Virus record (IMG/VR): IMGVR_UViG_3300014205_000176
DNA from: a virus
Taxonomy: Duplodnaviria > Heunggongvirae > Uroviricota > Caudoviricetes
DNA: 64,000 nucleotides
Reading direction: 5' to 3' (one strand)
Numbering within the stretch: position 1 is the first letter of the stretch; every line of letters begins with the position of its first letter. Positions 1-45,493 of this stretch are shown here, piece after piece. The notes under the pieces are model-generated. The model saw nothing but the letters and a program-made list of their open reading frames with translations. It made no database searches and was not told the DNA's origin. The translations under genes and the position numbers were made by a program.

Positions 1-307
1 ATTTGACGTACACCTTACCAGAGAACAACTTGATAGTGTCTCCGATTCCTTCGCCGGCCATATCGAAATGGAACGCGAACAGGAGGGTTACAAGTTCTGG
101 GGACCGCACGTTTGTGACGATTGCACGAGACTAAAAGAGCGAGTGAAGGATTTAGAAAAACAATTGGCCGACGCTTACGAAGGCGGAGAGCGTGCGGTAA
201 AGCGAATCCTTGGGCTCTTTCCGGACGACCCCATTGCAATAGACAAACATGGTAACGTTGAGAGGATGCGATGATACTTCTAATTCTAATTGGTTTATTG
301 ATCGTGA

Positions 308-1612
308 TTGTTCGCCCATGGGAATCAGAACCAGAATACGATTTTTCTCGCGGCTCAGTATTTCCAGAATATATGTAATAGAATGTCATTTGCAAAACCA
401 AAGAAGCTCCGGTGGAGAAGGCTTCTCTCCTTCGCTACTGATATTATCAACAAAACCCCGCACCGTAGCGATGGGATGTTGACGAAGGTTATCAAGACGC
501 TTGCAGTAATTGATTCATTCAATACCCAAATGACCAAGGGTGGAAAGTCATCCGCCATATCAAGCTTCTTTGGTGACCTTGACTTGGTAGAAGTAACCAA
601 CGATCAGTTCGTCAACCTCTTCTATTCTACAGGCCTAAGAGATAGCTTCACCATTACTAGGATTGAGGTTGGTGACTACTGCGAGATCGTCAAGGCAACC
701 CGTGCGGATATCGGAACCCTATACTTCGTTGAGTGGCATTGGGGACGGCGGCCTGAACCATCTGCAGACTTCTACCACACGCCGGGATTCAATTTCGAGA
801 AGGCCCTTGCTGTGCTGTGGGAGAACTTCCATGGCCGCATTCATCTAGGGATAACTCAAGGTCGGGAGGGAGAACTCAAATCCACCTATTCCGAAATCCC
901 CGAACCAAAAGAATATCTCTTTGGTAAAACAAGAGAGATGCTTCAAGAGTTCAAGGAACAACATCTACTCTACGTCAGAGACCACGTACCACGCACCTAC
1001 CTCTTCTGCGGCAAGCAAGGCATTGGTAAGACATCCTTCTGCCTTCGCTTAGCAGCGCTCACTGGAGGAAGGACTCTGCGCATTGATGCTTGTGGCATGA
1101 CGGAGGTGGGGGTTAGGGACCTAGACTTCATCGTCAATGGGTTGTGTCCGAACTTCCTGATTGTAGATGACATAGACCGTGCCCCAGACCTTACCAAGTC
1201 TTTACCAACGCTGTTCTCAATTCTCTCTGACTTCAAGCGCAAGCACCCAAATGTTACGGTGGCGATGACCATCAATGACATCAATCAACTTGATGTGGCT
1301 TTGATAAGGCCAGAGCGGATTGATGAGATCATCGAGCTGGAACCTCCCGATGGAGAAGATCGGACGGACATTCTAAAGGGGTACTTGGAGGCTTTCGGAG
1401 TTACCGGCGAGGTTGATATCGCCAAGCTCTCTGAAGCCACTGAGGGGCTGACTGCCGCCTACCTTCAGGAGATTGCCTTGCAGCTTCGATACCGCCCTCA
1501 GGAGAAGGTTCTGAAGCTTGTGACTAGGATGAATGAGCTGACCAAGGCAAAGGCTGTAGAGAAGGAATCTAAACCAGGTGACATTTGGCACAGGGCCTCA
1601 ACCAAGGCATGA
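308..1612 (+). CDS. AAA+ family ATPase
   Basis: Walker A 'CGKQGIGKTS' and Walker B 'FLIVDDID' in a 434-aa ORF; downstream AAA-like region ('VAMTINDINQLDVALIRPERID'). Confidence 0.6.
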   Translation: MFAHGNQNQNTIFLAAQYFQNICNRMSFAKPKKLRWRRLLSFATDIINKTPHRSDGMLTKVIKTLAVIDSFNTQMTKGGKSSAISSFFGDLDLVEVTNDQFVNLFYSTGLRDSFTITRIEVGDYCEIVKATRADIGTLYFVEWHWGRRPEPSADFYHTPGFNFEKALAVLWENFHGRIHLGITQGREGELKSTYSEIPEPKEYLFGKTREMLQEFKEQHLLYVRDHVPRTYLFCGKQGIGKTSFCLRLAALTGGRTLRIDACGMTEVGVRDLDFIVNGLCPNFLIVDDIDRAPDLTKSLPTLFSILSDFKRKHPNVTVAMTINDINQLDVALIRPERIDEIIELEPPDGEDRTDILKGYLEAFGVTGEVDIAKLSEATEGLTAAYLQEIALQLRYRPQEKVLKLVTRMNELTKAKAVEKESKPGDIWHRASTKA

Positions 1613-1615
1613 GTT

Positions 1616-2113
1616 ATGTTCAAGTCAATCGACCTATCTTCTTTAGAATCTACCTGGGCGTACGCACCTGGGGAAGAAGTTTCTCCTGGGGTTTGGGTAA
1701 CGTGGACACATAATTTTGAGAACTTTTATCTTACCAAAGAGTTTGAAAGTTTTTGTGAGTGTACTTTAGCAGCCACGGATGGGGTAGACCCTTTGAAATG
1801 GTTTGTGGATTCTGGTTTTCGCAGCACGTATGGTGTCTGTGATAGTCCTGAGCAATTCCTGGCCAGTGATGTTTACAAGTTCTACAACGAGCGGCCAGAA
1901 GAGTTCATTGCAACTTTGACGGAGGTTCGTAAGGATGACCAACCAAAGCAGGGTGGCTGGCGATGGCACAAGTGGGGACCGTACATTGGGACTCACGAGA
2001 AGCAGTTCGAGTACCTGGCTGATGAAGAGGGAATCGAGCGCGTGTTCTGCTACCACATCGTGTTGAGGGTGAGTCTCAAAGAACGCCTAGGAGCAATTAC
2101 CCCCGAGGATTAG
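1616..2113 (+). CDS. hypothetical protein
   Basis: 165-aa ORF tightly packed after the preceding gene, same strand. Confidence 0.4.
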   Translation: MFKSIDLSSLESTWAYAPGEEVSPGVWVTWTHNFENFYLTKEFESFCECTLAATDGVDPLKWFVDSGFRSTYGVCDSPEQFLASDVYKFYNERPEEFIATLTEVRKDDQPKQGGWRWHKWGPYIGTHEKQFEYLADEEGIERVFCYHIVLRVSLKERLGAITPED

Positions 2114-2117
2114 TTTT

Positions 2118-2360
2118 ATGACTGTAGAATTATCAGGTCAAGAATCTAAGGCGCTTTGCAAGTGGGCTGGCGTAGACCTTTCTCAAAGCTGCAATGATGA
2201 TGGATCTCCAAATCCATTATTGGTTGCTGGTGCTATACGCAATGTCATTAGGGCTTCGGAGCAGTTGGGTCCGAAGCTCGTTGCGATGCTTGCGGTGCGT
2301 GGTTTGATTGAGCCCGGCGAGACTCCAGTAGATGCTTTGGAAAGGTTGCTAGATTCATGA
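2118..2360 (+). CDS. hypothetical protein
   Basis: 80-aa ORF in the plus-strand gene train. Confidence 0.35.
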   Translation: MTVELSGQESKALCKWAGVDLSQSCNDDGSPNPLLVAGAIRNVIRASEQLGPKLVAMLAVRGLIEPGETPVDALERLLDS

Positions 2361-2671
2361 AGACTATATTCATCCTTGAAGATGATGATGAGGTGGCAAC
2401 CTCCGATCTTTGCCGCCCATTGAATCCATCTGGTGCGCTGGAACTGTCCGCATTTGGTAGGTATGTTCGGAACAACTCAACATGGATTCCGGTGACAGAA
2501 GTACTTGGTCCGATGTGGATGGGGAAGAAGTTGGGCGCGATAAAGAGGGAGCTAACTGAGAAGTCTGTCCATGAGTATGTGTTCGAATACGAAGTGATTC
2601 GAGGGGAAGTTCCGAGAGATCATTTGCTGGATGTAGATGCTTATAAGACTCAGATGCTACATGGGTTCTAA
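2357..2671 (+). CDS. hypothetical protein
   Basis: 104-aa ORF; 4-nt overlap with upstream gene typical of phage operons. Confidence 0.4.
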   Translation: MKTIFILEDDDEVATSDLCRPLNPSGALELSAFGRYVRNNSTWIPVTEVLGPMWMGKKLGAIKRELTEKSVHEYVFEYEVIRGEVPRDHLLDVDAYKTQMLHGF

Positions 2672-2673
2672 CT

Positions 2674-3060
2674 ATGACTTACGCTGAATGGATTGCGGCC
2701 TACATCGAATCTCAGAATGGTATTGTATATGGGCAATGCTCTTCTGCAGTTGCTGCGATGGTCAAGGTGTTTCCCGAGCTTCGCATTGTTCGGGGTCATG
2801 TGTTCGATTTGCAGTTGGGGCAACGAAGTCATTGGTGGTTGGTGACTGCAGCTGGTGAGATTGTAGATCCTACCAAAGGCCAATTCCCTTGCCTCATGGA
2901 GTATGAAGAGTGGGTGCCTGGTACTGAGGTGCGGGTTGGGGCTTGTATGCAGTGCGGGGCTGATATCTGGGAAGCTGTTGATTCGCTTGATGGGCCACCT
3001 ATTCATCGCAACTTTTGCAGTTCAGAATGTGAAGCTGAGTTGATTAGTGAATACAGATGA
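2674..3060 (+). CDS. hypothetical protein with C-terminal Cys cluster
   Basis: 128-aa ORF; 'CMQCGADIW...CSSEC' possible zinc-binding site. Confidence 0.4.
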   Translation: MTYAEWIAAYIESQNGIVYGQCSSAVAAMVKVFPELRIVRGHVFDLQLGQRSHWWLVTAAGEIVDPTKGQFPCLMEYEEWVPGTEVRVGACMQCGADIWEAVDSLDGPPIHRNFCSSECEAELISEYR

Positions 3061-3971
3061 TGCGTTACAGGAAAGACAAAATGAACAAGCTACAAAAAAT
3101 TGCCGAAGACACAATCGCTGCTATCGATGCCGAGAAGTACACCACTCCTTCAGGCCGCACGCTATCGCTCGACAAGCTGATGGCATCCTGCACTCGAAGG
3201 TCAGTTCTCTACAAGCCAGATGGCATTGCGGAACTGGAGAAGTCCAATGGTCTCACTCGGAAGATCGTGGTGGCTCCAGAGATCATGGTGACGAGGGAGT
3301 CAACGCTGGAGGCTGCGGCGCGGTTGGCTGGTGAGCGTCCCTGCATCCTCAACTTCGCTTCGGCAAAACACCCTGGTGGCGGCTTCCTGCGTGGGTCTCC
3401 GGCGCAAGAGGAGAGTATTGCGCGCAGCTCTGGGTTGTTCCCAACGCTGATTCGGCACCCTGAGTTCTACGAAGAGAACAAGAAGTCACAGAGAAATAAC
3501 ATTGGGTTGTATTTGGACTATGCCATTTACTCTCCGGATGTTCCAGTCATCCGCAATGATGCTGGTGAATGGTTAGAGGAACCATACTTTGTGTCTGTTG
3601 TTACATCGCCAGCTCCTAATCGTCATGCAATCTTCGATGATGAAGACAACAAGATGGATGACGATCAAGAGGAAGCAATGGAGATGAAGATTGAACAGAC
3701 TTTTTCAAAGAGAATGAAACAAGTACTCTCAATCATGGCAGCTCAAGGACATCGAACGATCATCCTGGGAGCGTGGGGATGCGGGGTATTTGGCAATGAT
3801 CCATTGATGGTTGCTGAATTGTTCAGAGACAACTTGAAGCTTCTGCCGTTTTTTGATAAAGTGGCGTTCCCAATATACGACCGGTCGGACTCAGAAACGC
3901 TCCGGTCATTCGTTCAAATCTTCGGGCCGGAGGTTGACCCACGGACCGGTTCGAAACCACAACCGAATTGA
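3057..3971 (+). CDS. bacterial-type poly(ADP-ribose) glycohydrolase-like macrodomain protein (DUF2263/TIGR02452-like)
   Basis: PARG signature GGG-x7-QEE ('HPGGGFLRGSPAQEES') plus 'ILGAWGCGVFGNDP' macrodomain-like segment. Confidence 0.6.
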   Translation: MMRYRKDKMNKLQKIAEDTIAAIDAEKYTTPSGRTLSLDKLMASCTRRSVLYKPDGIAELEKSNGLTRKIVVAPEIMVTRESTLEAAARLAGERPCILNFASAKHPGGGFLRGSPAQEESIARSSGLFPTLIRHPEFYEENKKSQRNNIGLYLDYAIYSPDVPVIRNDAGEWLEEPYFVSVVTSPAPNRHAIFDDEDNKMDDDQEEAMEMKIEQTFSKRMKQVLSIMAAQGHRTIILGAWGCGVFGNDPLMVAELFRDNLKLLPFFDKVAFPIYDRSDSETLRSFVQIFGPEVDPRTGSKPQPN

Positions 3972-4037
3972 GGAACTCCGGCATAGTCAACTGTATTGGA
4001 TTGACTTGAACTCAATCAACCATTTGGAGAGGCTGCT

Positions 4038-4388
4038 TTGATTGGCCGTCTCTTCACCAAGAACAAAATGTCAATCACAGTAGCAATTGAACCGCCAGGA
4101 TATCGCAAGCCCAATGTGAAGGCGGCATTGGAAATTGGATACGCTCCAGTCATGGCCTTTTATGGTGACTGCATGGGTGTTGCCTTGGTCAATAGAGACC
4201 CAGCTCAGCTTCACCTTTCTTTCGTTATGCTCTATGAGGATGATGGTTGGTGGTACGAATCCAAAGGTAACCCAATCGATTCGCATTGGATGCCTGAGAT
4301 GATCGAGGTTCTACAGGAAGCACATCGCTGGGTGAAAGCGCACGCCAGGAAGTCCAAGGATGGTTGCGGATGGGAGGCTAAGAAGTGA
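4038..4388 (+). CDS. hypothetical protein
   Basis: 116-aa ORF. Confidence 0.4.
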   Translation: MIGRLFTKNKMSITVAIEPPGYRKPNVKAALEIGYAPVMAFYGDCMGVALVNRDPAQLHLSFVMLYEDDGWWYESKGNPIDSHWMPEMIEVLQEAHRWVKAHARKSKDGCGWEAKK

Positions 4389-4714
4389 CCGACACACTAT
4401 GTGATTGTTGCGAAGTGCTCCACGAAATGTTATGTAAATGCTGCGAATTTGGAATAATCTCTCCTCCGGTGAGTAATTGTAAATTGTACAATCCATCCAC
4501 TGCCTGCCCAGCTGATGCTGCTGAGATAGTGATCACGGCCGTTGATGCGGTAAAGGCATACTACGCCGACCCTGGGCGATTGAGTACGAATGTAGTGGCC
4601 TCGATCGGTAGTAAGTGGCTCGAAGAGGCTATGAATAACTTGAGGTTAGCACTGATTGCCGGTGGCCATCTTCACTTACCTATGCCTACGGATGAGGTTG
4701 ATGACAATGATTAA
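4385..4714 (+). CDS. hypothetical Cys-rich protein
   Basis: 109-aa ORF with 'CDCCEVLHEMLCKCCE'. Confidence 0.4.
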   Translation: MTDTLCDCCEVLHEMLCKCCEFGIISPPVSNCKLYNPSTACPADAAEIVITAVDAVKAYYADPGRLSTNVVASIGSKWLEEAMNNLRLALIAGGHLHLPMPTDEVDDND

Positions 4715-5072
4715 AGGCAGAGCCTTCATCTCTGGACCGTACCGTGGTGATCTCACCGATGCTTGCATTGCAGCTAACCTTGCTAAAGCTAGGGTTGTAG
4801 CTCAAGAAGTAACACGATTGGGTTGGGTTCCGGTCTGTCCTAACCTAATGTTCACTGAGTTCGCTGAATTGCAGAATTGGAATTTCTGGTTAGAGGCCTC
4901 ACTTAAAGAACTTGACACATGTGACATCTTGGTGTTGGTTCCTGGTTGGCGAAATTCAACTGGGGTTAGTGGAGAAATAGTTCGTGCAGTAGAACGACAC
5001 ATGCCAGTGTTCAAGTCATCTGAAGATCTTGCTATCTATGAAGCAGACCTATTAGGAATGGCGATTCTATGA
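4701..5072 (+). CDS. nucleoside 2-deoxyribosyltransferase-like (DUF4406-like) protein
   Basis: Fold-level resemblance ('GPYRGD...VPVCPNLMF...LVLVPGWRNSTGVSGEI'). Start moved to the in-frame ATG at 4701 to avoid a long overlap with the upstream gene. Confidence 0.35.
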   Translation: MTMIKGRAFISGPYRGDLTDACIAANLAKARVVAQEVTRLGWVPVCPNLMFTEFAELQNWNFWLEASLKELDTCDILVLVPGWRNSTGVSGEIVRAVERHMPVFKSSEDLAIYEADLLGMAIL

Positions 5073-5701
5073 CTGACAAATCTGAAATGCCAGTAGCTGC
5101 TAGTATTATTGTGCAGTACTTGCAGCACCTATCTCAGGAACATTACTGCGCAAAATGGACTGCGGATATTGAGCATAGCATCTGGGAACATGTGATAGGG
5201 CCAGACCCAGCTCCAGAAGAGGATGGACGCTTTTGGAATAGAATTGGTAATGATCTCGTCCAGCTGCGCAAGCTAGCCGCTGAGTGCAAGGGCTGGGTTT
5301 GCTTCAATGACCTTGCAACTGGACCAGATGACTTCAGATCTTTTGTTCCGATAGAGGAATGGATCAAGCAGCATGCGGCTCATACCGGCAAGGAGATGAC
5401 CGAAGAGCAACGTCATCGACTGAATGCCTTTATGAACGAACGTCTGAGTGACAAGCAGCGCAAGCTACAAGACCATGCGGCAGCTGTAGTTCTGGCCATC
5501 CAAGCATCAGGGCGCACCGATGTTCATCTGGACTTCCTAGAGGTGTTGCGAATGATCCCATTGGAGTTGCGCGGCTGCCCAGATTGCGGCACTCATCCGG
5601 GCGGAGTTCATCATCCGAAGTGTAAGAGCCTGACCTATGAAAAGGTTCGTTCTGAAACGGTATATGATGATGCGTTCATAGAGAAGGTTCCATGGAGATA
5701 G
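5069..5701 (+). CDS. hypothetical protein
   Basis: 210-aa ORF; C-terminal 'CPDCGTHPGGVHHPKC'. Confidence 0.4.
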   Translation: MTDKSEMPVAASIIVQYLQHLSQEHYCAKWTADIEHSIWEHVIGPDPAPEEDGRFWNRIGNDLVQLRKLAAECKGWVCFNDLATGPDDFRSFVPIEEWIKQHAAHTGKEMTEEQRHRLNAFMNERLSDKQRKLQDHAAAVVLAIQASGRTDVHLDFLEVLRMIPLELRGCPDCGTHPGGVHHPKCKSLTYEKVRSETVYDDAFIEKVPWR

Positions 5702-5723
5702 GCCAGGTGATAAAGCAAATGCA

Positions 5724-6074
5724 GTGCGCAACCTGCGGAACATTGCGAAGAGCATTGAAGAGCAGGCCAACGCCATTGAGAATGGCACTCTCCCAAATCT
5801 CTTGAATGTAGGTTATGGTTGGAGAGATGATAATATTGGCCCAATTGACTTGGGATATGGAGCCTACCATCTGACGGTCTTGGAAGCTAGATGCTTGGTT
5901 TCGAAACTGCTTGGTGCCATCTATGCTCTTGGCGGTAATGGAAACACCCAAGGGCAAGCACATGAACCCATCGAACATGCATTCATTGACGCTCTGAAAA
6001 CTGGGCTGACGTTTCCGTTAGACGAAGAACAAATCCTCAAGGTATTGCAAGAAGCGAAGGCTCGGAATGGCTAA
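5724..6074 (+). CDS. hypothetical protein
   Basis: 116-aa ORF. Confidence 0.35.
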   Translation: MRNLRNIAKSIEEQANAIENGTLPNLLNVGYGWRDDNIGPIDLGYGAYHLTVLEARCLVSKLLGAIYALGGNGNTQGQAHEPIEHAFIDALKTGLTFPLDEEQILKVLQEAKARNG

Positions 6075-6549
6075 GACTTCATTACAGGCTCATGAAGGAT
6101 GGATCCCTAAGGATAGTTGCAAGGATCGTTTCCTCTACCGCATTAATTCGCGCAACCTATTCTTAGGTGTCTTCCGCGCGGCAACTGGTGGCTTCATTGG
6201 TTTGCGCACGAAGTTCGGCAGCGTGTATGCCTTCGAGGAATACCACTGGGACAATGAAGCTTTCGCAACGGTCAAGCCAGAAGAGCAACTGGAAGAGTTG
6301 CCGGCGGAGATTGTTTTGGATACAGGTCTAGGTTCGAGGTGTCATAACTGTCACAAGACCTGTGCGTACATCGATTTCCTTGATGGTCCTCGTGAGAAAG
6401 ACTATGGCGGCGAACGCAAAGTCTCGATACGTGGAGAGTGGAAGCATACCGAGCCAAGTGATTGCACTGAGGTTCTAGCTTACGGAGAACCAAATGCTCC
6501 GCTAGAAAAATGGCTACACGAAATGGAGGCTAAGTATGTCAGCGATTGA
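6067..6549 (+). CDS. hypothetical protein
   Basis: 160-aa ORF. Confidence 0.4.
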   Translation: MAKTSLQAHEGWIPKDSCKDRFLYRINSRNLFLGVFRAATGGFIGLRTKFGSVYAFEEYHWDNEAFATVKPEEQLEELPAEIVLDTGLGSRCHNCHKTCAYIDFLDGPREKDYGGERKVSIRGEWKHTEPSDCTEVLAYGEPNAPLEKWLHEMEAKYVSD

Positions 6550-6793
6550 TTATAAGAATCTGTTGTCTCCTATCGTGTATGGAAAGATCCGTTTCGTAGA
6601 GGACGATGGGGGCCGAGCTGCAGCCGGCTTTGAGGGTACGGCTGATGATTGTGCCACTCGTGCGATAGCGATTGTTGCCGAGCTTCCATACAAGGATGTT
6701 CATGCCGCACTAACCGAGTGGCAGGGTTGGGCCGCTGATGCTGGTGGGAATGGTTCTGACCATTTCACTTGCAGAAAGGTAGGATTATTGTAA
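6536..6793 (+). CDS. hypothetical protein
   Basis: 85-aa ORF. Confidence 0.3.
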   Translation: MSAIDYKNLLSPIVYGKIRFVEDDGGRAAAGFEGTADDCATRAIAIVAELPYKDVHAALTEWQGWAADAGGNGSDHFTCRKVGLL

Positions 6794-6902
6794 GGGTGTC
6801 TCATCATTTTGCGGCAGTCATTGATGGAGTCCTACACGACACCCACGACTGCTCTCGCTATGGCAAGCGCTGCGTATACGGATACTTCAAGAAGGAATCT
6901 AT

Positions 6903-7742
6903 ATGACCATAACTCGCTACAGCTTTTTCAATGTGCGATGTCTACCGAACTGTTCAGACAAGAACCTTTGCTTCACCGAACATGCACCACCAAAAAAGGA
7001 ATGCGACCATCCAATCTGTTGTTGCACGAGCAATGTTTCGATTCGTCCGACTGGGGAGCCATCATCGGTAACCCAGCACATTGAATTCGTACCGCTGCAG
7101 TTGGGGAAGTTTCGTCCAGAGTTTGGTCTGGATAATGGATGGCTTATCTTTCGTTGGGACATGACTCCTGAGGATATTGAGAAGTGTATCTATGATGATG
7201 ATAATCGCGATCCTCATGCGTACTTCATGTTCCATCCCGCTCAGCGCAGCGTAAAGATTCAGGTGATGGTTCCTGGGTATGGATTGACAGATTACTTCTT
7301 TGCCGATCTGTATATGGGTAACCAGATTGACGTCAGCAAGTTCATCAATGGGCACTCCGCGTCCGAGATGGTAAACCTCTCTGGTACAGCTCACAAGTTA
7401 TCACTATCTCCGATTACAAGCGAAGACCTCTGGCTGCACAAATGCAACTGGGGAGTGGAGGCGATGCGAGTCTTTGGAGATAGCGAAGAGGCGCGGGCCT
7501 GGAGAGATGCAATCATCCGAATGGAACGCCTTCATCAGCTGATGTCGAAGTACAGATCAAAAGAAACTTTCAGTTGGCCAATTGAAGATATTCGAGAGGA
7601 TGTCAGAGCCAACTTGGAGATCTTTGAAATCGCTAGTCGCGTCGCCAATTATTGCGAACAAGTAGTCTTTGAGTTGCAAACCACGCATCTGTTTCGGCTA
7701 CAACAGGAACTAGATCTGGTACTTAAGGACGCCCATGTTTGA
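6903..7742 (+). CDS. hypothetical protein
   Basis: 279-aa ORF. Confidence 0.4.
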   Translation: MTITRYSFFNVRCLPNCSDKNLCFTEHAPPKKECDHPICCCTSNVSIRPTGEPSSVTQHIEFVPLQLGKFRPEFGLDNGWLIFRWDMTPEDIEKCIYDDDNRDPHAYFMFHPAQRSVKIQVMVPGYGLTDYFFADLYMGNQIDVSKFINGHSASEMVNLSGTAHKLSLSPITSEDLWLHKCNWGVEAMRVFGDSEEARAWRDAIIRMERLHQLMSKYRSKETFSWPIEDIREDVRANLEIFEIASRVANYCEQVVFELQTTHLFRLQQELDLVLKDAHV

Positions 7743-8136
7743 TGCTCCTTATGAGGCTATATTCCTTCTTCCGGAACCTCTCTGCAAATCCTGTGGCGCG
7801 AAGATACCTCCATCAGATTCGGGAGCAGACTCATCCGCCTGCCCGCAATGTGGTGAGATCTTCCATTGGTCTCTGAGGGAGAAGGTTGCCACTGCGGCGA
7901 TCATGGCATACGTTTCTGCGGAGGTGGTTAAGGAAGAAGCCGCCCGTATTCTTCGCGAGTTCAAAGCTCGGCGCTGGTGCAAGAGGCACGGTTTCCAGAG
8001 AGTGTTGCCACTAGAACATCCACCGGGAAGGACACTTGAATACTGTGTCCATTGCATTGCTGTGGCGATGGCTCATCCACCGACAAAAAGTTCACCAGAT
8101 GATTGTCCTGGAGTATTCCTTCCGAGGAACCAATGA
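7735..8136 (+). CDS. hypothetical zinc-ribbon protein
   Basis: 'CKSCGAKIP...CPQCGE' plus 'CVHC' motifs. Confidence 0.4.
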   Translation: MFDAPYEAIFLLPEPLCKSCGAKIPPSDSGADSSACPQCGEIFHWSLREKVATAAIMAYVSAEVVKEEAARILREFKARRWCKRHGFQRVLPLEHPPGRTLEYCVHCIAVAMAHPPTKSSPDDCPGVFLPRNQ

Positions 8137-8504
8137 GTATTGCGGACAAGCTCATAGCGATGTTCGAGGAGCGCCAGTTAGAACAGATCCAGAACTCATG
8201 GTGTCTAGCTGACAAGGCGGCACGCAAGCATCGTCTGAAGACTCTCATCGCCTTGGTGTTGGAGCTTGAGGAGATCAAGAAGGTCAGCATCTTCTCGACT
8301 GCCTTTGGAGAGATGGCTATCGAGGCTGTCATCCAGGGAGATTGGCGCGAGCTGGAAGAGGTGGTGGGGTACCAGACGTTCAAGGCTGAGCACCCTGATA
8401 TACAAGCCGAGTTCGCACCACTATGGGAGAAGTTCCGGGCGATTGCGGAGACGGCGATTGCAGAAGAGCGGCGCAGGGACGGGAAAGCAAGCGAGGCTCA
8501 CTAA
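8103..8504 (+). CDS. hypothetical protein
   Basis: 133-aa ORF. Confidence 0.4.
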   Translation: MSWSIPSEEPMSIADKLIAMFEERQLEQIQNSWCLADKAARKHRLKTLIALVLELEEIKKVSIFSTAFGEMAIEAVIQGDWRELEEVVGYQTFKAEHPDIQAEFAPLWEKFRAIAETAIAEERRRDGKASEAH

Positions 8505-9166
8505 TGTATCGAGTACTTCCAGTTGAAGATTTTCCTAGCTACAAGGCATTCCCCGGAGCTAATCCTCCTGCTTGGTTAGTGGTAACTCCATACATTCCAG
8601 AGAAGGAGCCGAAGGAACTGGCCTACAAGCTGCGCGGCACAACAACAAGAGAACAATGGTACACCGTAGTCTCGTCGCACCCTACCAAAGGCTCTGCTGA
8701 TAAAGCTTACAGAAAACTGATGTCACAAGGCAGGGCTCATGGATTCAAAGAGATGGTTGGTGAGGTAGATGATAAGCCCTACCATCTTGCAATGACCGAG
8801 AGGCAGGCACAGGTATTGGTGAATGCTCTTGACTTGTACTCTCGAATTGGTATGGGGCAATTGACAGAGGTTACACACATCTTACGTATGACTGTTGTTG
8901 GTAACCCAAGCGGCACAGTAGATGCTCTTGACGCTGTTGAGAGATTGACTCGGGAGGCTGCTTCTCTTTGGATGGGTGGTTCCGGAGGCTACTATGGAAT
9001 TACTAGCGATAAGATCAGTGACGTGTTCAGAGTGGCATGGGATCTTCAGCAAGTAATCCGGTATCGCTTGGCCTGGGATCGAAAGCCCGAGGGTGGGATT
9101 CAGGTTCACTTCGATAATCCAATGAAGACTTCTGCTGAGGAGCTTGCGCTTATAAAGAAGGTTTGA
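8504..9166 (+). CDS. hypothetical protein
   Basis: Start placed at the ATG overlapping the upstream stop (TAATG); 220 aa. Confidence 0.4.
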   Translation: MYRVLPVEDFPSYKAFPGANPPAWLVVTPYIPEKEPKELAYKLRGTTTREQWYTVVSSHPTKGSADKAYRKLMSQGRAHGFKEMVGEVDDKPYHLAMTERQAQVLVNALDLYSRIGMGQLTEVTHILRMTVVGNPSGTVDALDAVERLTREAASLWMGGSGGYYGITSDKISDVFRVAWDLQQVIRYRLAWDRKPEGGIQVHFDNPMKTSAEELALIKKV

Positions 9167-9926: not shown

Positions 9927-10469
9927 ATGGTCATTTCATTAGAGCAGGCTCAGGATTTTATAACTAGCATCCTTCCGAAGGTACGAACCAACTTCGAGGG
10001 GAATGGTTTCTTACACCCTGTGGCTTTCATTGGCGCGCAGATAAATCCGGAGACTAGTGAACCATTTGTTGAGACTACCATCATTGCAATAACTCCAGAG
10101 ATGCTTGGTGTTAGCATGAGTAATAATCAAGGAGTCCAAATGTATACAATGGGACTTCGTCAGATCTCTAAGATGTGCAAGGCCATAATGGTTGTTAGTG
10201 TAATTGAGGCGTGGAGATTGATGTTTCCCAAGGGAGAAGATCCTCGTGCTGGCCGTAAAAATTTCCCAAGATCATTGGAGCATGCACCTGGTCGTGAAGA
10301 GTGCATTCAGGTCATGATGGAGCACCACAAACTAAATGGTAAGGTAATGATGTGGTGTGCCACTATAACCCGCGATAAACAAGAACGTGGTATATTGGCC
10401 GAGTTTACTGGTCCTGATACTATAGATGGATCGGGAAGGTTCCTTGGTATGGTGGAGACTCTGTCATGA
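9927..10469 (+). CDS. hypothetical protein
   Basis: 180-aa ORF. Confidence 0.4.
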   Translation: MVISLEQAQDFITSILPKVRTNFEGNGFLHPVAFIGAQINPETSEPFVETTIIAITPEMLGVSMSNNQGVQMYTMGLRQISKMCKAIMVVSVIEAWRLMFPKGEDPRAGRKNFPRSLEHAPGREECIQVMMEHHKLNGKVMMWCATITRDKQERGILAEFTGPDTIDGSGRFLGMVETLS

Positions 10470-10534
10470 TGGCGGATGTGATGTATCCATAATCTCATAG
10501 GCAGCGTGTACCGAAACTAGGGTAGGAGTTATCA

Positions 10535-10810
10535 ATGACTGTAAAGCTCATCAGGCACACCAGCGAATGTGATCACTCAGACGATCCAATCATGCCATTC
10601 AAACTTGAGATGGTACTTAAGGTACCGGAGTTCATGGAGGTTACATGGGTTTGTCTTTATGGCGGAACAGAAGAAATTGTTGCGCGAGGAGATAGTGTTG
10701 AAGAACTGCATGCCTGGATGGAAGAGCACAGCCTCAAGACGCATCCACGAATGAGCAGATACGCAATAGCCAATAACGATGGCGTGGTCGTAGATTCATT
10801 TGATCGATGA
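10535..10810 (+). CDS. hypothetical protein
   Basis: 91-aa ORF. Confidence 0.35.
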   Translation: MTVKLIRHTSECDHSDDPIMPFKLEMVLKVPEFMEVTWVCLYGGTEEIVARGDSVEELHAWMEEHSLKTHPRMSRYAIANNDGVVVDSFDR

Positions 10811-16733: not shown

Positions 16734-18422
16734 ATGTTGACAAATTCTGCCAAAAGAGTTGCTGACACAATTGTTCACACCCTTATTTCATCTAATATAA
16801 ATCACTTCTTTGGAGTTCCAGGAGGCCCAATCTCTCCCATATTCGATGCCATTCTGGGCAACACCACTGCGACACTCATCGAATCGCGGCAAGAAACAGG
16901 CGCTGCCTTTGCCGCTGGGGGCTACAATCGCATCAGTGGACACGTTCCATGCGTCATGGTCACAGCTGGACCTGGAGCTACCAATGTAGTGACTGGTGTG
17001 ACAGCGGCTTACCTAGAGCATACCCCAATGATCGTGCTGGCTGGAGACGTTTCATGGACGAAGGGGGGCCGGATGCTTCAAGACTCTGGACCGCAGGGCA
17101 TTGATATGGAAGGAATGTTTCGCGGAGTTACCAAAGCTACTATTCGCATTCGACAAGCCAAGTCTGCTGCAGCTCATGTGATGGCTGCGATCCAAATTGC
17201 AACCAATCCTAATAACCCTGGCCCGGTTTTGATTGTTATTGCAATTGAAGTAGCATCTGAATTGGAAGTCACACCAGAAACTCAAATGATGGCATGCTAC
17301 TTGGACTACCGAATCAGTCAGGCAACTGTAGAAATGATTCGAGACAAGATAATCAATGCAGAGCGACCATTGCTAGTATTGGGAGCTGGGTGTCGGCCAT
17401 TTGCGCAATCTTTAGAGACGCTGCTATCTATCTTCAAAGTTCCGTTCGTTACTACGCCGAGAGGTAAAGGAGTTGTCAGCGAGTCCCACTCTTGTTCTTT
17501 GAGGCACGGTGGGCTGGCTGCTTCAATGTGGGCGCGTGAGTATTGTCAAAGGGGTGTTGACTTCGCATTGGTTTTGGGAACTGATCTTGACGATTGTTCT
17601 ATAGGCCCTACCAAGTACATCCGAGAAGGTGGAGAGTTGGTACATGTGGATTTGGATTCCACGGTCTTCAATCGTAACCTACCAACCACACTGGGATTGG
17701 TGACAAATGTTGGTAGTCTTCTCAACCAATTAATTGTGGCTACCTTCGATATGGCTATCAATCTGAAGGATGAGGTGCGAGAGATTAAGTCGCACTCTGC
17801 TTTCGACGTTTGGGATTTTGAGACTCAGCCCAGCGTCATCATCACACCATACAGAGCCATCTTTGATCTTCAAACTGCTTGCCCAGATGCACGTTTCGTT
17901 ACCGATATTGGGGAGCACATGCTTTTTGCACTACACTACCTAACGGCTACGAATCCCCAACAATTCACCATTCATTTAGGATTGGGAAGCATGGGGTCTG
18001 GTATTTGCTCAGCGATTGGAATGGCCATTGCTGATAGGGGAACGGGAGTAATTTGCATATGTGGAGATGGTGGAATGCAAATGAATGGTATGGAGGTGAT
18101 AACCGCAAAGATGCAGCGTCTTCCAATTCTGTTCGCGATATTTAATGACTCCAGATACAATATGGTATATCATGGTTACAAACAAGTCTACGGGAAAGAA
18201 ACACCAGTCGAAACTCCATTGATTGATTTTCGATCATGGGGGCTATCGATGGGGATTGCCTCTGAGCGCATCAATCATTCTGGTGAAATAACACCAAATT
18301 TAATTGGTGCTCTCATGCATGATGGACCGGCAATATTGGACATCAGGATTGACCGAAACTTTCACATTGCTGGCGGTGGAAGAAATGAAGCGCTACAACT
18401 AATGAGTCAACCGGAGAAATAA
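16734..18422 (+). CDS. thiamine-diphosphate-dependent enzyme (acetolactate synthase large subunit-like)
   Basis: N-terminal Pyr domain ('GVPGGPISPIFDAI...VTAGPGATNVVTGV...MIVLAGDV') and ThDP-binding motif 'GDGGMQMNGMEV...N'. Confidence 0.75.
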   Translation: MLTNSAKRVADTIVHTLISSNINHFFGVPGGPISPIFDAILGNTTATLIESRQETGAAFAAGGYNRISGHVPCVMVTAGPGATNVVTGVTAAYLEHTPMIVLAGDVSWTKGGRMLQDSGPQGIDMEGMFRGVTKATIRIRQAKSAAAHVMAAIQIATNPNNPGPVLIVIAIEVASELEVTPETQMMACYLDYRISQATVEMIRDKIINAERPLLVLGAGCRPFAQSLETLLSIFKVPFVTTPRGKGVVSESHSCSLRHGGLAASMWAREYCQRGVDFALVLGTDLDDCSIGPTKYIREGGELVHVDLDSTVFNRNLPTTLGLVTNVGSLLNQLIVATFDMAINLKDEVREIKSHSAFDVWDFETQPSVIITPYRAIFDLQTACPDARFVTDIGEHMLFALHYLTATNPQQFTIHLGLGSMGSGICSAIGMAIADRGTGVICICGDGGMQMNGMEVITAKMQRLPILFAIFNDSRYNMVYHGYKQVYGKETPVETPLIDFRSWGLSMGIASERINHSGEITPNLIGALMHDGPAILDIRIDRNFHIAGGGRNEALQLMSQPEK

Positions 18423-18423
18423 G

Positions 18424-19494
18424 ATGATACAAGCAAAAATCGCAGGTATGGGGCAATGGATTCCGGAAGAAGTTCGCACAAATGATGCGTGGCCATTAGG
18501 TTTCGCCGAGTTATCAAAGGCGTCATCTCAACGAGAACTGATCGATATTGAACAAAAAGCATCTTGTTTAGCTGATGAAATCACTTTACGAAACATGAAT
18601 GCTGAGGCCGGAGATCCTTTTCTTGGGGCTTGTGAACGTCGAATCGCTTCACCCGACATAACTCCCGCCGAGGCTGCAACTCATGCTGCCAGAGCAGCTA
18701 TCAAAGATGCTGGTGTAGACCCAAAAGATATCGATGCGGTACTATCATGGGATGCCGTACCCGAGCTTGTTGGACCATCATCATCTTCGCGTGTGGCTTA
18801 TTTAGTAGGCGCTCATAATGCGTATGGTGTGGGTATTGATGTGGCCTGCGCTTCGTTTATTAGCCAACTTGATTTGGCATCGGCGCTCATCAAAGCTGAA
18901 CATGCTAAGACAATTCTATTGACTCAAACGCACTTTATGACGCGGCCAATCAAGATGATGCATCCTGCATCTCCGACAGTCGGTGATATTGCCACAGCAG
19001 CTGTTGTTACAGCACAAACAGATTTAAGCAAGGGCATTTTACCAATGCATGCACGCAGCTATGGAGAAGCTTATTATGCCGTACTGTGGACTCGTGGCCA
19101 GAAAGTACAAAATACATGGTATCAAAAAGGTGGCGATTTCTATCTGGGAACAGCAGATTTAGATATAGTTCGAGAGTTGGTGCGAACCACCGTGCGTGGT
19201 GCCTCTGAGATGATTCTAGAGACTTTGGCAAAAAGCAATTGTCCTTTGGATGAGGTTAGTGCGCTGATTAGTATTCAACCTCGCAAATGGATTCCAGCGG
19301 CTATAGCTGAAGCGGCTGGGATTAAAGCTCCAGCTCCAACCACATTTGATAGGTTCTGTCACATTGGTGGTTGTGGCCTAGTGGCAAATCTTATTAAGGC
19401 CCGAGAAATGGGATTACTCACACCACAAGCGAAAACTATATTGTTCGGACAAGGAGCTGGATTTATCAAAGCCGCAATGCTAATTTTGTGGTGA
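18424..19494 (+). CDS. 3-oxoacyl-ACP synthase III (FabH)-like / thiolase-fold condensing enzyme
   Basis: 'GIDVACASFISQLDLA' active-site Cys context; 356 aa; 1-nt gap after the ThDP enzyme gene suggests co-translation. Confidence 0.55.
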   Translation: MIQAKIAGMGQWIPEEVRTNDAWPLGFAELSKASSQRELIDIEQKASCLADEITLRNMNAEAGDPFLGACERRIASPDITPAEAATHAARAAIKDAGVDPKDIDAVLSWDAVPELVGPSSSSRVAYLVGAHNAYGVGIDVACASFISQLDLASALIKAEHAKTILLTQTHFMTRPIKMMHPASPTVGDIATAAVVTAQTDLSKGILPMHARSYGEAYYAVLWTRGQKVQNTWYQKGGDFYLGTADLDIVRELVRTTVRGASEMILETLAKSNCPLDEVSALISIQPRKWIPAAIAEAAGIKAPAPTTFDRFCHIGGCGLVANLIKAREMGLLTPQAKTILFGQGAGFIKAAMLILW

Positions 19495-26042: not shown

Positions 26043-26334
26043 AGAATACATCTCGTGTGATGAACAGCTTCGGCGCTGGGTTGATGGAGAATCTGTTCAT
26101 AGACTCATCTCTAGCGATGAAGATAGCGAATGCTGCCCAGACTTCTCTTGTTGTAAACCGGAATTTCTGCAGCCAGTTGAGGTGAGACAGGCCTTCGCAG
26201 CCGCTGATGATGAGAAGCGCCACGAGTTTCTGATGACGTTCCTTGGAGCGGCTATTCAGTGTGCAGCGCAAGAGGGACATAAAAAGGATTTGGAAGTGTA
26301 TCTGGCGGGCAAAGACCCCACGAAGGAAGTTTGA
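26008..26334 (+). CDS. hypothetical Cys-rich protein
   Basis: 108-aa ORF, 'CCPDFSCC'. Confidence 0.35.
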   Translation: MIRTIPLSKVIREYISCDEQLRRWVDGESVHRLISSDEDSECCPDFSCCKPEFLQPVEVRQAFAAADDEKRHEFLMTFLGAAIQCAAQEGHKKDLEVYLAGKDPTKEV

Positions 26335-26335
26335 T

Positions 26336-27295
26336 ATGAGCACAGCAGCTGACGAAATCAAGGGCAAATACTTCAGGATCCTAGACCATGGCTTCATCTC
26401 CCTAGTTGATTACATGGGAGATGATTCTTCTATTGTTCAAGCCGCCCGTGTTAGTTACGGCGCAGGTACTAAGAACACAGGTACAGACCGCGGGCTCCTT
26501 CGTTACATGCTGAAGCACGGCCACACCTCTCCCTTCGAGCAGGTCATCCTCAAGTTCCATGTGAAGCTTCCTGTGTTCGTGGCCCGGCAATTGATCCGTC
26601 ACCGCACCGCCAGCATCAACGAGTACTCTATGAGATACTCTCTTCCCGTGATGCAGTTCTACATGCCGAATGCCAACGACATGGGAACCCAGTCCAAGAA
26701 GAATAAACAGGGTAGAGCTGAACCAGTATCAGCTGAGCAAGCGGCTCTTATCCAAAACAAATGGAAGGAGATGCAGGTCTCCGCCATTGAATTCTACGAG
26801 TATCTAACCTCTCAAGAAGTAGATATGGCGCGGGAGATTGCTCGCATTGGGTTGCCGCTCTCCATATATACTGAGTGGTATTGGACCATTGATCTCCACA
26901 ACCTATTGCACTTCATGGGTCTGCGTAGCGATAGCCATGCACAGTGGGAGATTCAACAGTTCAGCAATGTTAAAGCCGCAATGGTGAAGCGCGTAACTCC
27001 AGCAGCCTATGAAGCTTGGATTGATTACAAGTTCCAAGGCTACAAGTTCAGCCGTATGGAGATGATTGTATTGCTAGAATCATTGGCGGGAATCACCACA
27101 GCCAACAATATCCAAGAGCGTTGTGTGAATCTTGGAATGACTACAAGAGAAATTTCAGAGTTCACAGAGGTTATAAAAGCAACCTCTCTGGAACGTTTCG
27201 AGAAACCCATTGACTTCGATCTTAATCCGGCAGATGGATTGTCTGGAGAGGTATTGTTGGCCGAGGCCCAGCGGTTTATTCCCAGGAGTTTGTGA
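26336..27295 (+). CDS. thyX: flavin-dependent thymidylate synthase ThyX
   Basis: ThyX signature 'RHRTASINEYSMRYS' (RHRx7-8S) and N-terminal 'LDHGFISLVDYMGDD'; start moved to the ATG after the upstream stop. Confidence 0.8.
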   Translation: MSTAADEIKGKYFRILDHGFISLVDYMGDDSSIVQAARVSYGAGTKNTGTDRGLLRYMLKHGHTSPFEQVILKFHVKLPVFVARQLIRHRTASINEYSMRYSLPVMQFYMPNANDMGTQSKKNKQGRAEPVSAEQAALIQNKWKEMQVSAIEFYEYLTSQEVDMAREIARIGLPLSIYTEWYWTIDLHNLLHFMGLRSDSHAQWEIQQFSNVKAAMVKRVTPAAYEAWIDYKFQGYKFSRMEMIVLLESLAGITTANNIQERCVNLGMTTREISEFTEVIKATSLERFEKPIDFDLNPADGLSGEVLLAEAQRFIPRSL

Positions 27296-31054: not shown

Positions 31055-32965
31055 ATGAGTTTGTTTTTCCTATTGCTATTCGCAATTATTCTCATCGCTG
31101 CGCCAATTGCCATCAGCGCGTTCACTCACATTCATGTCAGCGGGCTATCATCTGTAATGATGACAGGTGTGGGAATCCTGTTGTTATTGGTGTGTGCAAT
31201 CCTCATTACCATCACCAAACTCTACGTTCGAACAAAGGCCAGTGAAGCGTTCGTTCGCACTGGTATGGGTGGCCTGAAGGTCATTCGAGATGGCGGCTCT
31301 CTGGTGCTCCCAGTGGTTCACCAAATCGTTAAGGTATCTCTGGAAACTATCAAGCTCGAAGTCTTGAGAGTTGCGGCGGATGCACTCATCACCAGCGACA
31401 AACTAAGGGCAGATATCAAGGCCGAGTTCTTCGTTCGAATTCAACCAGAAGATACGGCAATCCAAGCCGCAGCACGTTCTCTTGGTGACAAGGTTAGTGA
31501 GGAGAACTCAACGAAGGGCAGCAACTACAAGCAGAGTGTCATCGCCTTACTTGAAGACAAGCTCATCTCTGCCCTACGAACAAGCGCAGCATGCAAGACA
31601 CTTGAGCAACTCAACAGCGAACGCAATGAGTTCCTCAAGGAAGTGACGCAGTTGGTGACAGACGATCTGAAGCACAACGGATTCTTGCTTGAGACGGTTA
31701 CCATTTCGCGCCTTGACCAAACCGATGTATCAAATCTCAAGGAGAGCAACATCTTCGACGCACAGGGCGCGCGAACCATCGCAGAGATCACGCAGCGTAA
31801 CTTGACTGAGAAGAACAAGATCCTTCGTGAAGGTGATCAGGCTCGTACTGCTCAGGACGTTCAGACTCGTACAGCTGTTCTTGAGTTGGAACGAAAGCGT
31901 GCGGAGGCTGAGGCAACGCAGGCTGCTGCAATTGCTACCATCACAGCCGAACAAGATCGCGTCACCAAAGAGAAGCAGATGGCGGCTCAGCTATCTGTCG
32001 ATGTTGCAACTGCTGACAACGCAAAGCAAACGGAAGTTGCCCGCATCAACCAGAAGCAGGCAATTGAAGTTTCTCAACGTGCGCAAATAGAAGCAATCGT
32101 TGAAGCTGATAAAAAAGTTGAAATCGCCAAGCGAAATCAGCTCAAGGCAATTGCTGATTCAGATGCCGAGAAGGCCCAAGCAGAAGCTAAGTTGGCAGAT
32201 GCAGAAGCTGACCGCGCGAAGGCTCGACAGAACATTGTCACTGTTGAATTGGTAGCTGCTGCAGATCGTGAGCGGCAGAAGACCATCATCGAAGCTCAAG
32301 CTATTGCAGAACGTAACTACGTAACTGCACAGAAGGCAGCTGATGGTGACGCCTATCGAATCAAGGTGGAAGCCGATGCTAAGAAGGCTAGTGCGGATGC
32401 TGAGGCAGAAGCCACCACGAAGAAGGCAACTGCAGAGGCCACTGCAAACCAACGCCGAGCCGAAGGTAACAAGGCTCTGTTGGTGGCGGAAGCTGAAGGT
32501 GCTCAAGCCAAGGCGCTCGCCGAAGCTGCAGGCCAGAAAGCTTTGGCCATGGTACCGGTCGAAGTCAACGCACGCCAAGTGGAAGTTGATCAGCAACGAG
32601 TCCAGGAAGTCTTGGTGCCTGAGTTGAAGGCTCGTGCAGAGAACGGTGAAGCTGCCCAAAACTTCGAGCTTGCCAAGTTCCGCATCGAACAAGAAGCTCG
32701 TGTTCGCATCGAAGCCGCTCATGCCACAGCTCAGTTCTATGGCAAGATCCAAGCTAACGTCTATGGTACTCCGGAAGATGTAGCTAAGATGAGCGAGACA
32801 TTCACGAAGGGTATGGGTCTTTCGCAAATGTTCGGTGGTTTCATGGCTGGGGCTGATGGTTCCACCGTCGAAACCGTGCAGAAGATCATGGGTGCAGTGG
32901 ATGGTTTGGCCACGGCAGCTGCGAACAAGCTGTCTGGAAAAGGCTCAGCTTCAGACGCAGAATAA
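31055..32965 (+). CDS. flotillin-like SPFH (band 7) domain protein with long Ala/Glu-rich coiled coil
   Basis: N-terminal TM helices, SPFH core ('FVRTGMGGLKVIRDGGSLVLPVVHQIVKVSLETIKLEV...ITSDKLRADIKAEFFVRI'), then EA-rich repeats as in FloT/YuaG. Confidence 0.7.
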   Translation: MSLFFLLLFAIILIAAPIAISAFTHIHVSGLSSVMMTGVGILLLLVCAILITITKLYVRTKASEAFVRTGMGGLKVIRDGGSLVLPVVHQIVKVSLETIKLEVLRVAADALITSDKLRADIKAEFFVRIQPEDTAIQAAARSLGDKVSEENSTKGSNYKQSVIALLEDKLISALRTSAACKTLEQLNSERNEFLKEVTQLVTDDLKHNGFLLETVTISRLDQTDVSNLKESNIFDAQGARTIAEITQRNLTEKNKILREGDQARTAQDVQTRTAVLELERKRAEAEATQAAAIATITAEQDRVTKEKQMAAQLSVDVATADNAKQTEVARINQKQAIEVSQRAQIEAIVEADKKVEIAKRNQLKAIADSDAEKAQAEAKLADAEADRAKARQNIVTVELVAAADRERQKTIIEAQAIAERNYVTAQKAADGDAYRIKVEADAKKASADAEAEATTKKATAEATANQRRAEGNKALLVAEAEGAQAKALAEAAGQKALAMVPVEVNARQVEVDQQRVQEVLVPELKARAENGEAAQNFELAKFRIEQEARVRIEAAHATAQFYGKIQANVYGTPEDVAKMSETFTKGMGLSQMFGGFMAGADGSTVETVQKIMGAVDGLATAAANKLSGKGSASDAE

Positions 32966-33934: not shown

Positions 33935-34390
33935 ATGGAACCTGAAGCTTACGTTACTGAGGTTGATGGGAAGTTAGTCTTGGTTGATCCAATGGCCTGT
34001 GCTATGATTGACGCTATCACCCAGCACAACAAAAGCCTTTGCCGCAGCACCCTCGAACTACAACTGGATCGGGCTAAGCATTTCGCTCGAAGGGTCCGGG
34101 AGTTGGGTCGGCGGCCATCCGAAGTGGTTATCGTGCTGCTCAACGTTGACGATCCTCAGGGCGGCGCAGTGGCAGACATCCTGATGCCCGGCCACGATTG
34201 GCAACAGTTCCGTGATCGTGGGGAGGTTCCGTTCGCGCGTGGGCTTGCCGGACGTGAGGGGCTTCAGGGAATCTTGGATGAACTTGACCCGCTGGAAGGC
34301 CAGAAGCTACGAGAGGCATGGATGGTCAACACTGTGGTTGTAATGGACCACGGCGCGGTTGAGGTGTTCAAAGAGGGAGAGGATTTTTAG
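33935..34390 (+). CDS. hypothetical protein
   Basis: 151-aa ORF ending 1 nt before the cas3 start. Confidence 0.4.
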   Translation: MEPEAYVTEVDGKLVLVDPMACAMIDAITQHNKSLCRSTLELQLDRAKHFARRVRELGRRPSEVVIVLLNVDDPQGGAVADILMPGHDWQQFRDRGEVPFARGLAGREGLQGILDELDPLEGQKLREAWMVNTVVVMDHGAVEVFKEGEDF

Positions 34391-34391
34391 T

Positions 34392-36737: not shown

Positions 36738-36759
36738 AGAAAGTAACAGATAGGATAAC

Positions 36760-37836: not shown

Positions 37837-37885
37837 ATCAGTGCCTCCATCAACCTTAATTCCTTGTTTACATGCAGGGGAAATC

Positions 37886-45289: not shown

Positions 45290-45493
45290 TGCAACTCCAG
45301 AAGATTCAGAAACCACAGATCACGGTCCGCTAGGCAATGCACATGCAGCTCGGGTTGAGGTTGATTACCCATATCAAATTGAGCAGTGGGTGATTGAGAT
45401 GGGGACTGATCATCCTGAAATTATTCGCGCTGAGTATGAAGATCTCCGGCGCAAATGGACGAGAGACTCACCAACCACCTTTGTCGAGGTCCC

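Follow-up and report, generated by a model that had tools for sequence, protein, structure and literature searches.

A bacterial-type poly(ADP-ribose) glycohydrolase gene linked to PARP and MacroD-type genes in an uncultivated huge phage

What could a phage gain from an enzyme that removes ADP-ribose? The stretch of DNA analysed here, 64,000 nucleotides of the IMG/VR virus record IMGVR_UViG_3300014205_000176 (Caudoviricetes; hereafter the window), encodes PARG (poly(ADP-ribose) glycohydrolase) close to its left end, and the first-pass annotation, made from the sequence alone, had offered the reversal of host ADP-ribosylation defences or the modification of the phage's own proteins as possible roles. 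With moderate confidence, we regard this PARG as the chain eraser of a phage-run poly(ADP-ribosyl)ation (PARylation) cycle rather than as an enzyme that undoes host defence. This reading builds on family membership, intact motifs, the predicted fold, physical linkage to PARP and MacroD-type genes on the same molecule, and conservation of the gene block in related genomes.

In regard to the gene itself, an uninterrupted open reading frame (ORF) of 304 aa covers positions 3057..3971 of the plus strand. Its real start is most likely the ATG at 3081, giving a coding sequence of 3081..3971 and a protein of 296 aa identical to MCK9567538.1, because AGGAAAG at 3069-3075 provides a ribosome-binding site 5-11 nt before this codon, several homologues carry the N-terminus MNKLQKIAE in the alignment, and the public gene call MCK9567538.1 likewise comprises 296 aa. 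The ATG at 3057 overlaps the stop codon of the upstream ORF, and no clear ribosome-binding site was seen before it. The product is confirmed as a bacterial-type PARG. It matched Pfam PF10021 (PARG_cat_microb) over all profile positions (1-146 of 146; E 2.9e-42, 145 bits, cut-off 23.5) and NCBIfam TIGR02452 with 238 bits against a cut-off of 50, residues 15-282 lying on profile positions 2-260 of 266, so that both curated cut-offs were passed. A weak local match of residues 231-250 to the canonical PARG family PF05028 was also present, and the PHROGs search returned no family for this protein. Its best solved relative is the Thermomonospora curvata PARG (TcPARG) structure 3SIG (E 1.8e-56).

The catalytic loop HPGGGFLRGSPAQEES, composed of GGG, seven residues and QEE, is read at 3375..3413 on the plus strand and corresponds to residues 99-111 of the 296-aa protein. 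When aligned to 3SIG, GGG-FLRGSPA-QEE matches GGG-FLSGAHA-QEE of TcPARG column for column, with the two catalytic glutamates, E110 and E111, falling on E114/E115; the chain of the E115A mutant, 3SIJ, was aligned in the same way. G99, G100, Q109, E110 and E111 are invariant among 30 aligned homologues, as are G230, A231, W232, G233, C234, G235 and F237 of a second loop, GAWGCGVFGNDP (3768..3803, plus strand, residues 230-241), which has the same sequence in TcPARG and which we take, in view of the TcPARG structure, for the macrodomain's diphosphate-binding loop. Aligned with HMMER, the protein can be followed on 3SIG up to chain residue 261, short of the C-terminal 'ribose cap' (TcPARG R268, DrPARG T267 in D. 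radiodurans), the element by which bacterial-type PARGs are restricted to exo-glycohydrolase action. An acidic variable insertion, DDEDNKMDDDQEEAME (3636..3683, plus strand), is 11 residues longer than the corresponding TcPARG segment; it is found across the phage PARG clade in varying length (alignment columns 225-265).

An AlphaFold2 model built from the 30 homologues reached a mean pLDDT of 91 and a pTM of 0.90, and presents a macrodomain fold with an N-terminal helical extension as in TcPARG, with the insertion forming the start of a long predicted helix (residues 194-221). Searched with Foldseek against the PDB, the model returned 3SIH, 3SIJ and 3SIG as top matches (TM 0.80-0.84 on the query and 0.89-0.91 on the target; 0.84/0.91 for 3SIH), followed by the Deinococcus radiodurans PARG. 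The top 13 matches were all bacterial PARG structures, and generic macrodomains came next with a TM of about 0.4. The bacterial-type PARG macrodomain and the intact GGG-x7-QEE signature named in the first-pass annotation are thus borne out by both profiles, the 3SIG match and the predicted fold, and neither profile nor fold searches placed the protein in a non-macrodomain family. From the intact active-site motifs and the predicted fold, we infer that the enzyme is active and that the phage PARG is apparently catalytically competent.

The candidate partners of this enzyme are found upstream of window position 1. Three public contigs, L001, L002 and L106, overlap the window by 13,971, 9,892 and 3,308 bases, respectively, with 100% identity, and L106 extends far enough to reveal the gene order: a calcineurin-like phosphoesterase, an ATP-dependent DNA ligase, an FtsK-type ATPase, a Macro-domain protein and a PARP, then a LAGLIDADG endonuclease on the opposite strand, small ORFs, a radical SAM enzyme and an R2K-clade ATP-grasp enzyme, and finally an AAA ATPase (window 383..1612), four small ORFs and PARG, which begins at L106 21294. 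The PARP is a WGR-PARP_reg-PARP protein of 506 aa (P0244, MCK9567519.1) encoded on the same strand as PARG at L106 10001-11521, equivalent to window positions -8212..-6692, and its end lies 9.8 kb from PARG. The Macro-domain protein, of the YmdB/MacroD type, is encoded 1.8 kb upstream of the PARP at L106 7633-8163 (window -10580..-10050). PARP MCK9567519.1 and PARG MCK9567538.1 are also recorded on the same public contig of 463,377 bp, 19 accession numbers apart.

The full-length PARP was reached through a profile of its IMG/VR relatives and a cluster look-up. In a 463-aa copy (P0225), the PARP_reg and PARP domains score well above their cut-offs and WGR stands at 22.8 against a cut-off of 22; all three domains are clear in relatives of the phage PARP. 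The closest solved relatives are PARP1, PARP2 and PARP3. Polymer-forming PARPs have an H-Y-E catalytic triad; the His of WHGTRS and the Tyr of GDGKYFA fall on PARP1 catalytic residues in computed alignments, and we take these to be H862 and Y896 in PARP1 numbering. Downstream, five relatives share an unchanged NDEMITYD motif, and the computed PARP1 alignments end before it. As for the Macro protein, it matches Escherichia coli YmdB (5CB3) with an E of 1.5e-40 and human MacroD1/2 with an E of 1e-32 to 1e-33, it carries the NAAN…GGGVDG and ISTG motifs, and its relatives match Pfam Macro (E 2.5e-40).

Some features of the PARP surroundings deserve mention in their own right. The LAGLIDADG gene is a free-standing homing endonuclease situated 3 nt past the PARP stop codon, on the opposite strand, the two genes together spanning L106 10001..12315 (window -8212..-5898); the same arrangement is present in a related contig at L100 3102..5410, and the endonuclease is missing from that position in L103 and L104. 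The R2K-clade ATP-grasp gene (PF14243/PF18299) occurs in one or two copies, at L001 5736..6866 (window -1185..-55), L100 8188..9848 and L103 15478..17416. In this phage lineage, ATP-grasp and radical SAM genes stand between PARP and the AAA-PARG pair, and both families are predicted to modify proteins or peptides. Counting the PARP, three NAD+-consuming enzymes are encoded by the phage.

According to the mechanism that we propose, which takes PARP1-3 and the DNA-dependent Herpetosiphon aurantiacus enzyme as its models, DNA breaks would activate the phage PARP, and this enzyme would use NAD+ to build poly(ADP-ribose) (PAR) either on itself or on further proteins. The ribose-ribose bonds would next be cut by PARG from the chain end, freeing ADP-ribose, and the MacroD-type enzyme would take off the last, protein-linked ADP-ribose unit. 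The purpose of such a cycle might be the care of a very large phage genome or a timed modification of host or phage proteins. Modification of the phage's own proteins, as named in the first-pass annotation, is the alternative closest to this reading: genes for a PARP and a MacroD-type hydrolase do lie on the same molecule and form, with PARG, a block conserved across related genomes, and conserved synteny suggests that the three enzymes are paired. The region of these genes also holds the ATP-dependent DNA ligase, the calcineurin-like phosphoesterase and the FtsK-type translocase, and Ku is encoded in a more distant relative. A more far-reaching picture, which we put forward only tentatively, is that of a huge-phage lineage possessing a complete eukaryote-like PAR signalling cycle, in which a PARP2/3-like writer would sense breaks by its WGR domain and PARG and the MacroD-type enzyme would be the erasers; within bacterial cells, this cycle would serve the phage to signal and repair breaks in its own very large genome, and such phages might then represent a mobile reservoir of the sporadic bacterial PARP and PARG genes.

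Conservation of the block argues for the proposed pairing. The order Macro-PARP-…-AAA-PARG recurs in at least three related metagenomic genomes, with a PARP-to-PARG distance of 7.2 kb in L100 (a contig of 71 kb), 7.8 kb in L103 (28.6 kb) and 8.5 kb in L104/L105. Compared with the proteins of the window and its upstream extension, the PARGs of these genomes are 63-85% and the PARPs 76-89% identical, and in close relatives Macro, PARP and PARG are all kept within about 13 kb. Contigs of 233,817, 71,137 and 28,588 bp are common to the PARP and PARG clusters, the pair on the largest of them lying more than 10 kb apart. No contig name was common to the IMG/VR PARG and PARP loci among the matches listed, which carries little weight as these contigs are genome fragments.

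Several observations weigh against a dedicated PARP-PARG partnership. The two genes lie 9.8 kb and about 18 genes apart and are not an operon pair, and their linkage could be due to no more than common descent, one phage lineage having kept one syntenic region. Among 79 other IMG/VR PARG loci, L011 (IMG/VR 3300021077_000115, 392 kb) alone has a PARP within 10 kb. There, an intact, diverged PARP (45% identity) is found 7.3 kb upstream of a decayed PARG, a remnant at 9950..10548 in which only residues 120-296 are left, with a frameshift and the GGG-QEE loop gone, so a PARP can apparently persist without its eraser. Bacillus phage G and the Lak phages match PARG and gave no PARP match; likewise, the annotated phage PARPs of Klebsiella phage FBKp34, Xanthomonas phage XacN1 and Cellulophaga phage phi4:1 belong to genomes with no PARG match, and only the huge phage LR756511 holds both genes, about 400 kb apart. 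More distant members of the PARG clade, L003/L004 and L005, have no PARP within 10 kb and show a cRec-domain gene upstream instead, with Ku plus a ligase about 9 kb from PARG, and two further clade homologues (P0035 and P0036) are PARG-cRec fusions (PF20274). Such fusions and neighbours hint at a second, PARP-independent context for the PARGs of this clade. Finally, the catalytic Glu of the phage PARP was placed by likening NDEMITYD to NEYIVYD, which we take to be the catalytic-Glu motif of PARP1, rather than by a computed alignment. As a side note on the cRec genes, those standing separately (PF20274, 'cyclic-phosphate processing receiver') lie at most 2 kb upstream of PARG, at L003 9505..9816 and L005 8056..8373.

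Other roles have to be considered for the same enzyme. PARG could strip ADP-ribose from the 2'-OH of RNA, where RhsP2-type toxins place it, or from RNA or DNA ends that carry a 5'-phosphate. Toxins of the host, or by-product formation by the phage Tpt1/KptA, could give rise to such adducts, and the partner of PARG would in this case be a set of RNA-repair enzymes and not PARP. The bacterial-type PARGs of Streptomyces coelicolor and D. radiodurans are able to reverse RhsP2 2'-OH RNA ADP-ribosylation, shielding E. coli from the toxin, and to clear 5'-phosphate ADP-ribose made by Tpt1-type enzymes, and the D. radiodurans gene shares its operon with genes for a ligase and a kinase/phosphatase (PMC11833690). 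Enzymes of this kind encoded in the window are a Tpt1/KptA RNA 2'-phosphotransferase (45455..46057; E 2e-41 to 7KW8, phrog_5470 with E 2.7e-56), a Thg1-like enzyme (46641..47426) and a PhoH-RtcB fusion of 752 aa (48777..51035), and the Macro protein could equally serve the Tpt1 pathway. Furthermore, RlaP, Thg1, NADAR, Nudix, DHH and Ro60-vWA proteins are among those encoded right beside other viral PARGs, with cRec in clade relatives, although these neighbour counts are small and inflated by near-identical contigs. However, the RNA-repair genes of the window are situated more than 41 kb from PARG, whereas Macro, PARP and PARG stay close together in close relatives, and we consider this repair role, the main rival of our reading, rather unlikely. 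The two roles need not be exclusive, because the same bond is cleaved in both. Counter-defence, in which PARG would strip host-attached ADP-ribose from phage DNA (DarT) or destroy NAD-derived signals of the Thoeris or CBASS type, appears very unlikely. Macro, NADAR and cRec domains of jumbo phages have been proposed to degrade ADP-ribose-derived signals (PMC7824862), and PARG-cRec fusions and cRec neighbours do exist in this PARG clade, but no cRec gene stands beside PARG in the window, PADLOC gave no match for PARG, PARP or Macro, and a signal-degrading activity of bacterial-type PARG is not reported in the literature cited. The reversal of DarT base adducts is assigned to DarG macrodomain antitoxins, members of the TARG1-type group (PMC8120803), or to NADAR hydrolases; PARG does not figure among the enzymes said to do so (PMC11833690, PMC8120803). 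No sequence or fold search placed the phage protein in the DarG/TARG1 clade, all of them returning the PARG clade, and no DarT-like gene was seen among the PARG neighbours. The suggestion of the first-pass annotation that DarT or CBASS/Thoeris defences are reversed therefore found no support, and the phage-run PARylation cycle remains our preferred explanation.

That explanation presupposes a viral replicon, and gene content and IMG/VR relatives give good, though indirect, support for an uncultivated huge phage, its genome measuring about 460 kb. The identical PARG is recorded on the 463,377-bp contig under the GenBank label 'Candidatus Pacearchaeota archaeon'. This name, and the fact that searches of the 64-kb window turned up no capsid, portal or terminase gene, is what could be said for a cellular contig, either archaeal of the DPANN group or bacterial, with PARG as an ordinary cellular TIGR02452 protein; we hold this to be very improbable. 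On the other hand, when non-overlapping ORFs of 90 aa or more are counted, 68 of 79 share one strand, most of them belonging to no known family, and many of the matches in the window are to PHROGs, accompanied by several HNH, GIY-YIG and LAGLIDADG homing endonucleases and an endolysin match. Window positions 5069..9166 are syntenic with the 392-kb IMG/VR viral contig L011 (40-86% protein identity), PARG and PARP relatives are found on IMG/VR contigs of 110-450 kb, and PARG relatives are present on IMG/VR contigs of 100-520 kb and also in Bacillus phage G, Lak megaphages and published huge-phage genomes. The DNA ligase of the window (41868..43775) is NAD-dependent and of the bacterial type, and its CRISPR-Cas locus was seen with no Cas1 or Cas2 in the window, a composition typical of huge phages. 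A megablast search of 25 kb against phage genomes gave no match. In addition, no PARG was found in archaea by Perina et al. (PMC4245714). Gene content and the IMG/VR relatives suggest that the 463-kb contig is a huge phage binned into an archaeal metagenome-assembled genome.

Among characterized enzymes, the closest is the T. curvata PARG (3SIG/3SIH; DUF2263 or bacterial-type PARG), reportedly described by Slade et al. in 2011. Like it, the phage protein is a single-domain macrodomain with an N-terminal helical extension, the GGG-X7-QEE signature and an identical GAWGCGVFGNDP loop, and the two are about 40% identical in structural alignment. Unlike the bacterial enzyme, the present PARG is phage-encoded, has the 11-residue acidic insertion after SPAPNR, and its YEENKKSQRNN segment is 3 residues longer. 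The D. radiodurans PARG DRB0099 (5ZDA-5ZDG) belongs to the same family (E about 5e-38 over residues 75-278), but it lacks an N-terminal stretch of roughly 70 residues common to the phage protein and TcPARG, and D. radiodurans has no recognisable PARP (PMC8120803), whereas the present phage has one.

Complete sets of the three enzymes are known from bacteria. H. aurantiacus and Clostridioides difficile CD160 have a WGR-PARP_reg-PARP writer, a bacterial-type PARG and a MacroD-type hydrolase, as does the phage; in vitro, the PARP of these bacteria forms PAR, which is taken away again by the cognate PARG (PMC8120803, PMC5966428). The phage set differs in being phage-borne, with its three genes held within about 13 kb as a conserved block; PMC8120803 and PMC5966428 are not known to describe clustering of the bacterial PARP, PARG and MacroD genes. 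A bacterial-type PARG in a very large viral genome is a trait shared with phage G (gp114), Lak megaphages, the huge phages LR756502/LR756511 and pandoraviruses, the gp114 protein being 38% identical to the present PARG over 87% of the protein. Already in 2014, Perina et al. noted that Bacillus phage G and pandoraviruses have a bacterial-type PARG whose signature is intact, and they found PARPs in four other double-stranded DNA viruses and not in the PARG-bearing ones (PMC4245714), and phage PARPs and macro domains are mentioned in later surveys (PMC7824862, PMC9503650, PMC11662467). The presence of PARG in a large phage, taken alone, is therefore already known. On the other hand, the present clade has PARP and PARG linked, unlike phage G and the Lak phages, and a linked PARP-PARG-MacroD set on a phage appears undescribed in the full-text literature searched, a limited library; that a writer/eraser block is conserved on huge phages is modestly new. 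The functionality and role of PAR metabolism outside eukaryotes have been described as open (PMC4245714, PMC8120803), and a writer with two erasers on a phage offers a compact, self-contained system of three small proteins. If the cycle works, PARylation would join the toolkit that huge phages bring into their hosts, and these phages would be a plausible vehicle for the patchy, horizontally transferred PARP and PARG genes of bacteria.

Closer to PARG, the gene at 383..1612 on the plus strand encodes an AAA+ ATPase of 409 aa (PF00004, E 7.7e-11), which is found upstream of PARG in every close relative. In L100 and L103 it is 80-88% identical and directly adjoins PARG, and in L104/L105 and the window a few small ORFs part the two genes, so that, by position, a functional link between them may be supposed. 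An AAA ATPase as a general PARG partner was considered and rejected: AAA proteins are the commonest immediate neighbours of viral PARGs (6 of 124), yet they show no detectable relation to the window AAA protein, and several of them come from near-identical contigs. In the window, the space between the AAA gene and PARG is occupied by four small, tightly packed ORFs on the plus strand (1616-2113, 2118-2360, 2357-2671 and 2674-3060), for which profile searches gave no informative family match; three of the four are kept in L104 in the same order, with 69-83% identity. The ORF at 2357..2671 begins with MKTIFILEDDD and has a receiver-like look, but it was discarded as a cRec partner, having no Pfam match and aligning poorly to cRec proteins. 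No sigma-70-type promoter or intrinsic terminator stood out above shuffled expectation in positions 1..6500, which is consistent with co-transcription.

Downstream of PARG, the DUF4406-like gene pointed out in the first-pass annotation does exist, at 4707..5072 on the plus strand (121 aa as called; longest start 4656). Its product, with a nucleoside 2-deoxyribosyltransferase-like fold, scores above cut-off for DUF7768, DUF1937 and DUF4406, and its match to phrog_355 ('nucleoside 2-deoxyribosyltransferase') has an E of 3e-22. It has no counterpart beside PARG in the related loci compared; the gene is probably unrelated to PARG, and the idea of a small nucleotide-metabolism cluster was not supported.

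Some other parts of the window deserve mention for their gene content. The CRISPR-Cas locus at 34359..40610 resembles a type I-F variant and comprises Cas3fv (34359..36737; PADLOC E 5.8e-59), Cas7fv (36760..37836), an unassigned 310-aa ORF that may be Cas5fv (37841..38773) and Cas6 (38770..39297). They are followed by an array (39494..40610) in which a 36-nt repeat (ATTTAAATCCCTTCCGACAAGTGAAGGGGTCGAAAC) occurs 16 times, in degenerate form among the distal copies, with spacers of 34-37 nt that matched neither the related loci compared nor any other part of the window. A SPFH/Band 7 protein (31055..32965), a PcfJ-like protein (43777..45108), a vWA protein (55102..57036) and an inosine-uridine nucleoside hydrolase (61425..62366) are also encoded. 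Metabolic genes unusual for a phage are present at 16734..19494 and 26243..27295, namely an acetolactate-synthase-type thiamine-diphosphate enzyme of 562 aa (phrog_11199), a condensing enzyme of 356 aa that resembles KAS III, and ThyX.

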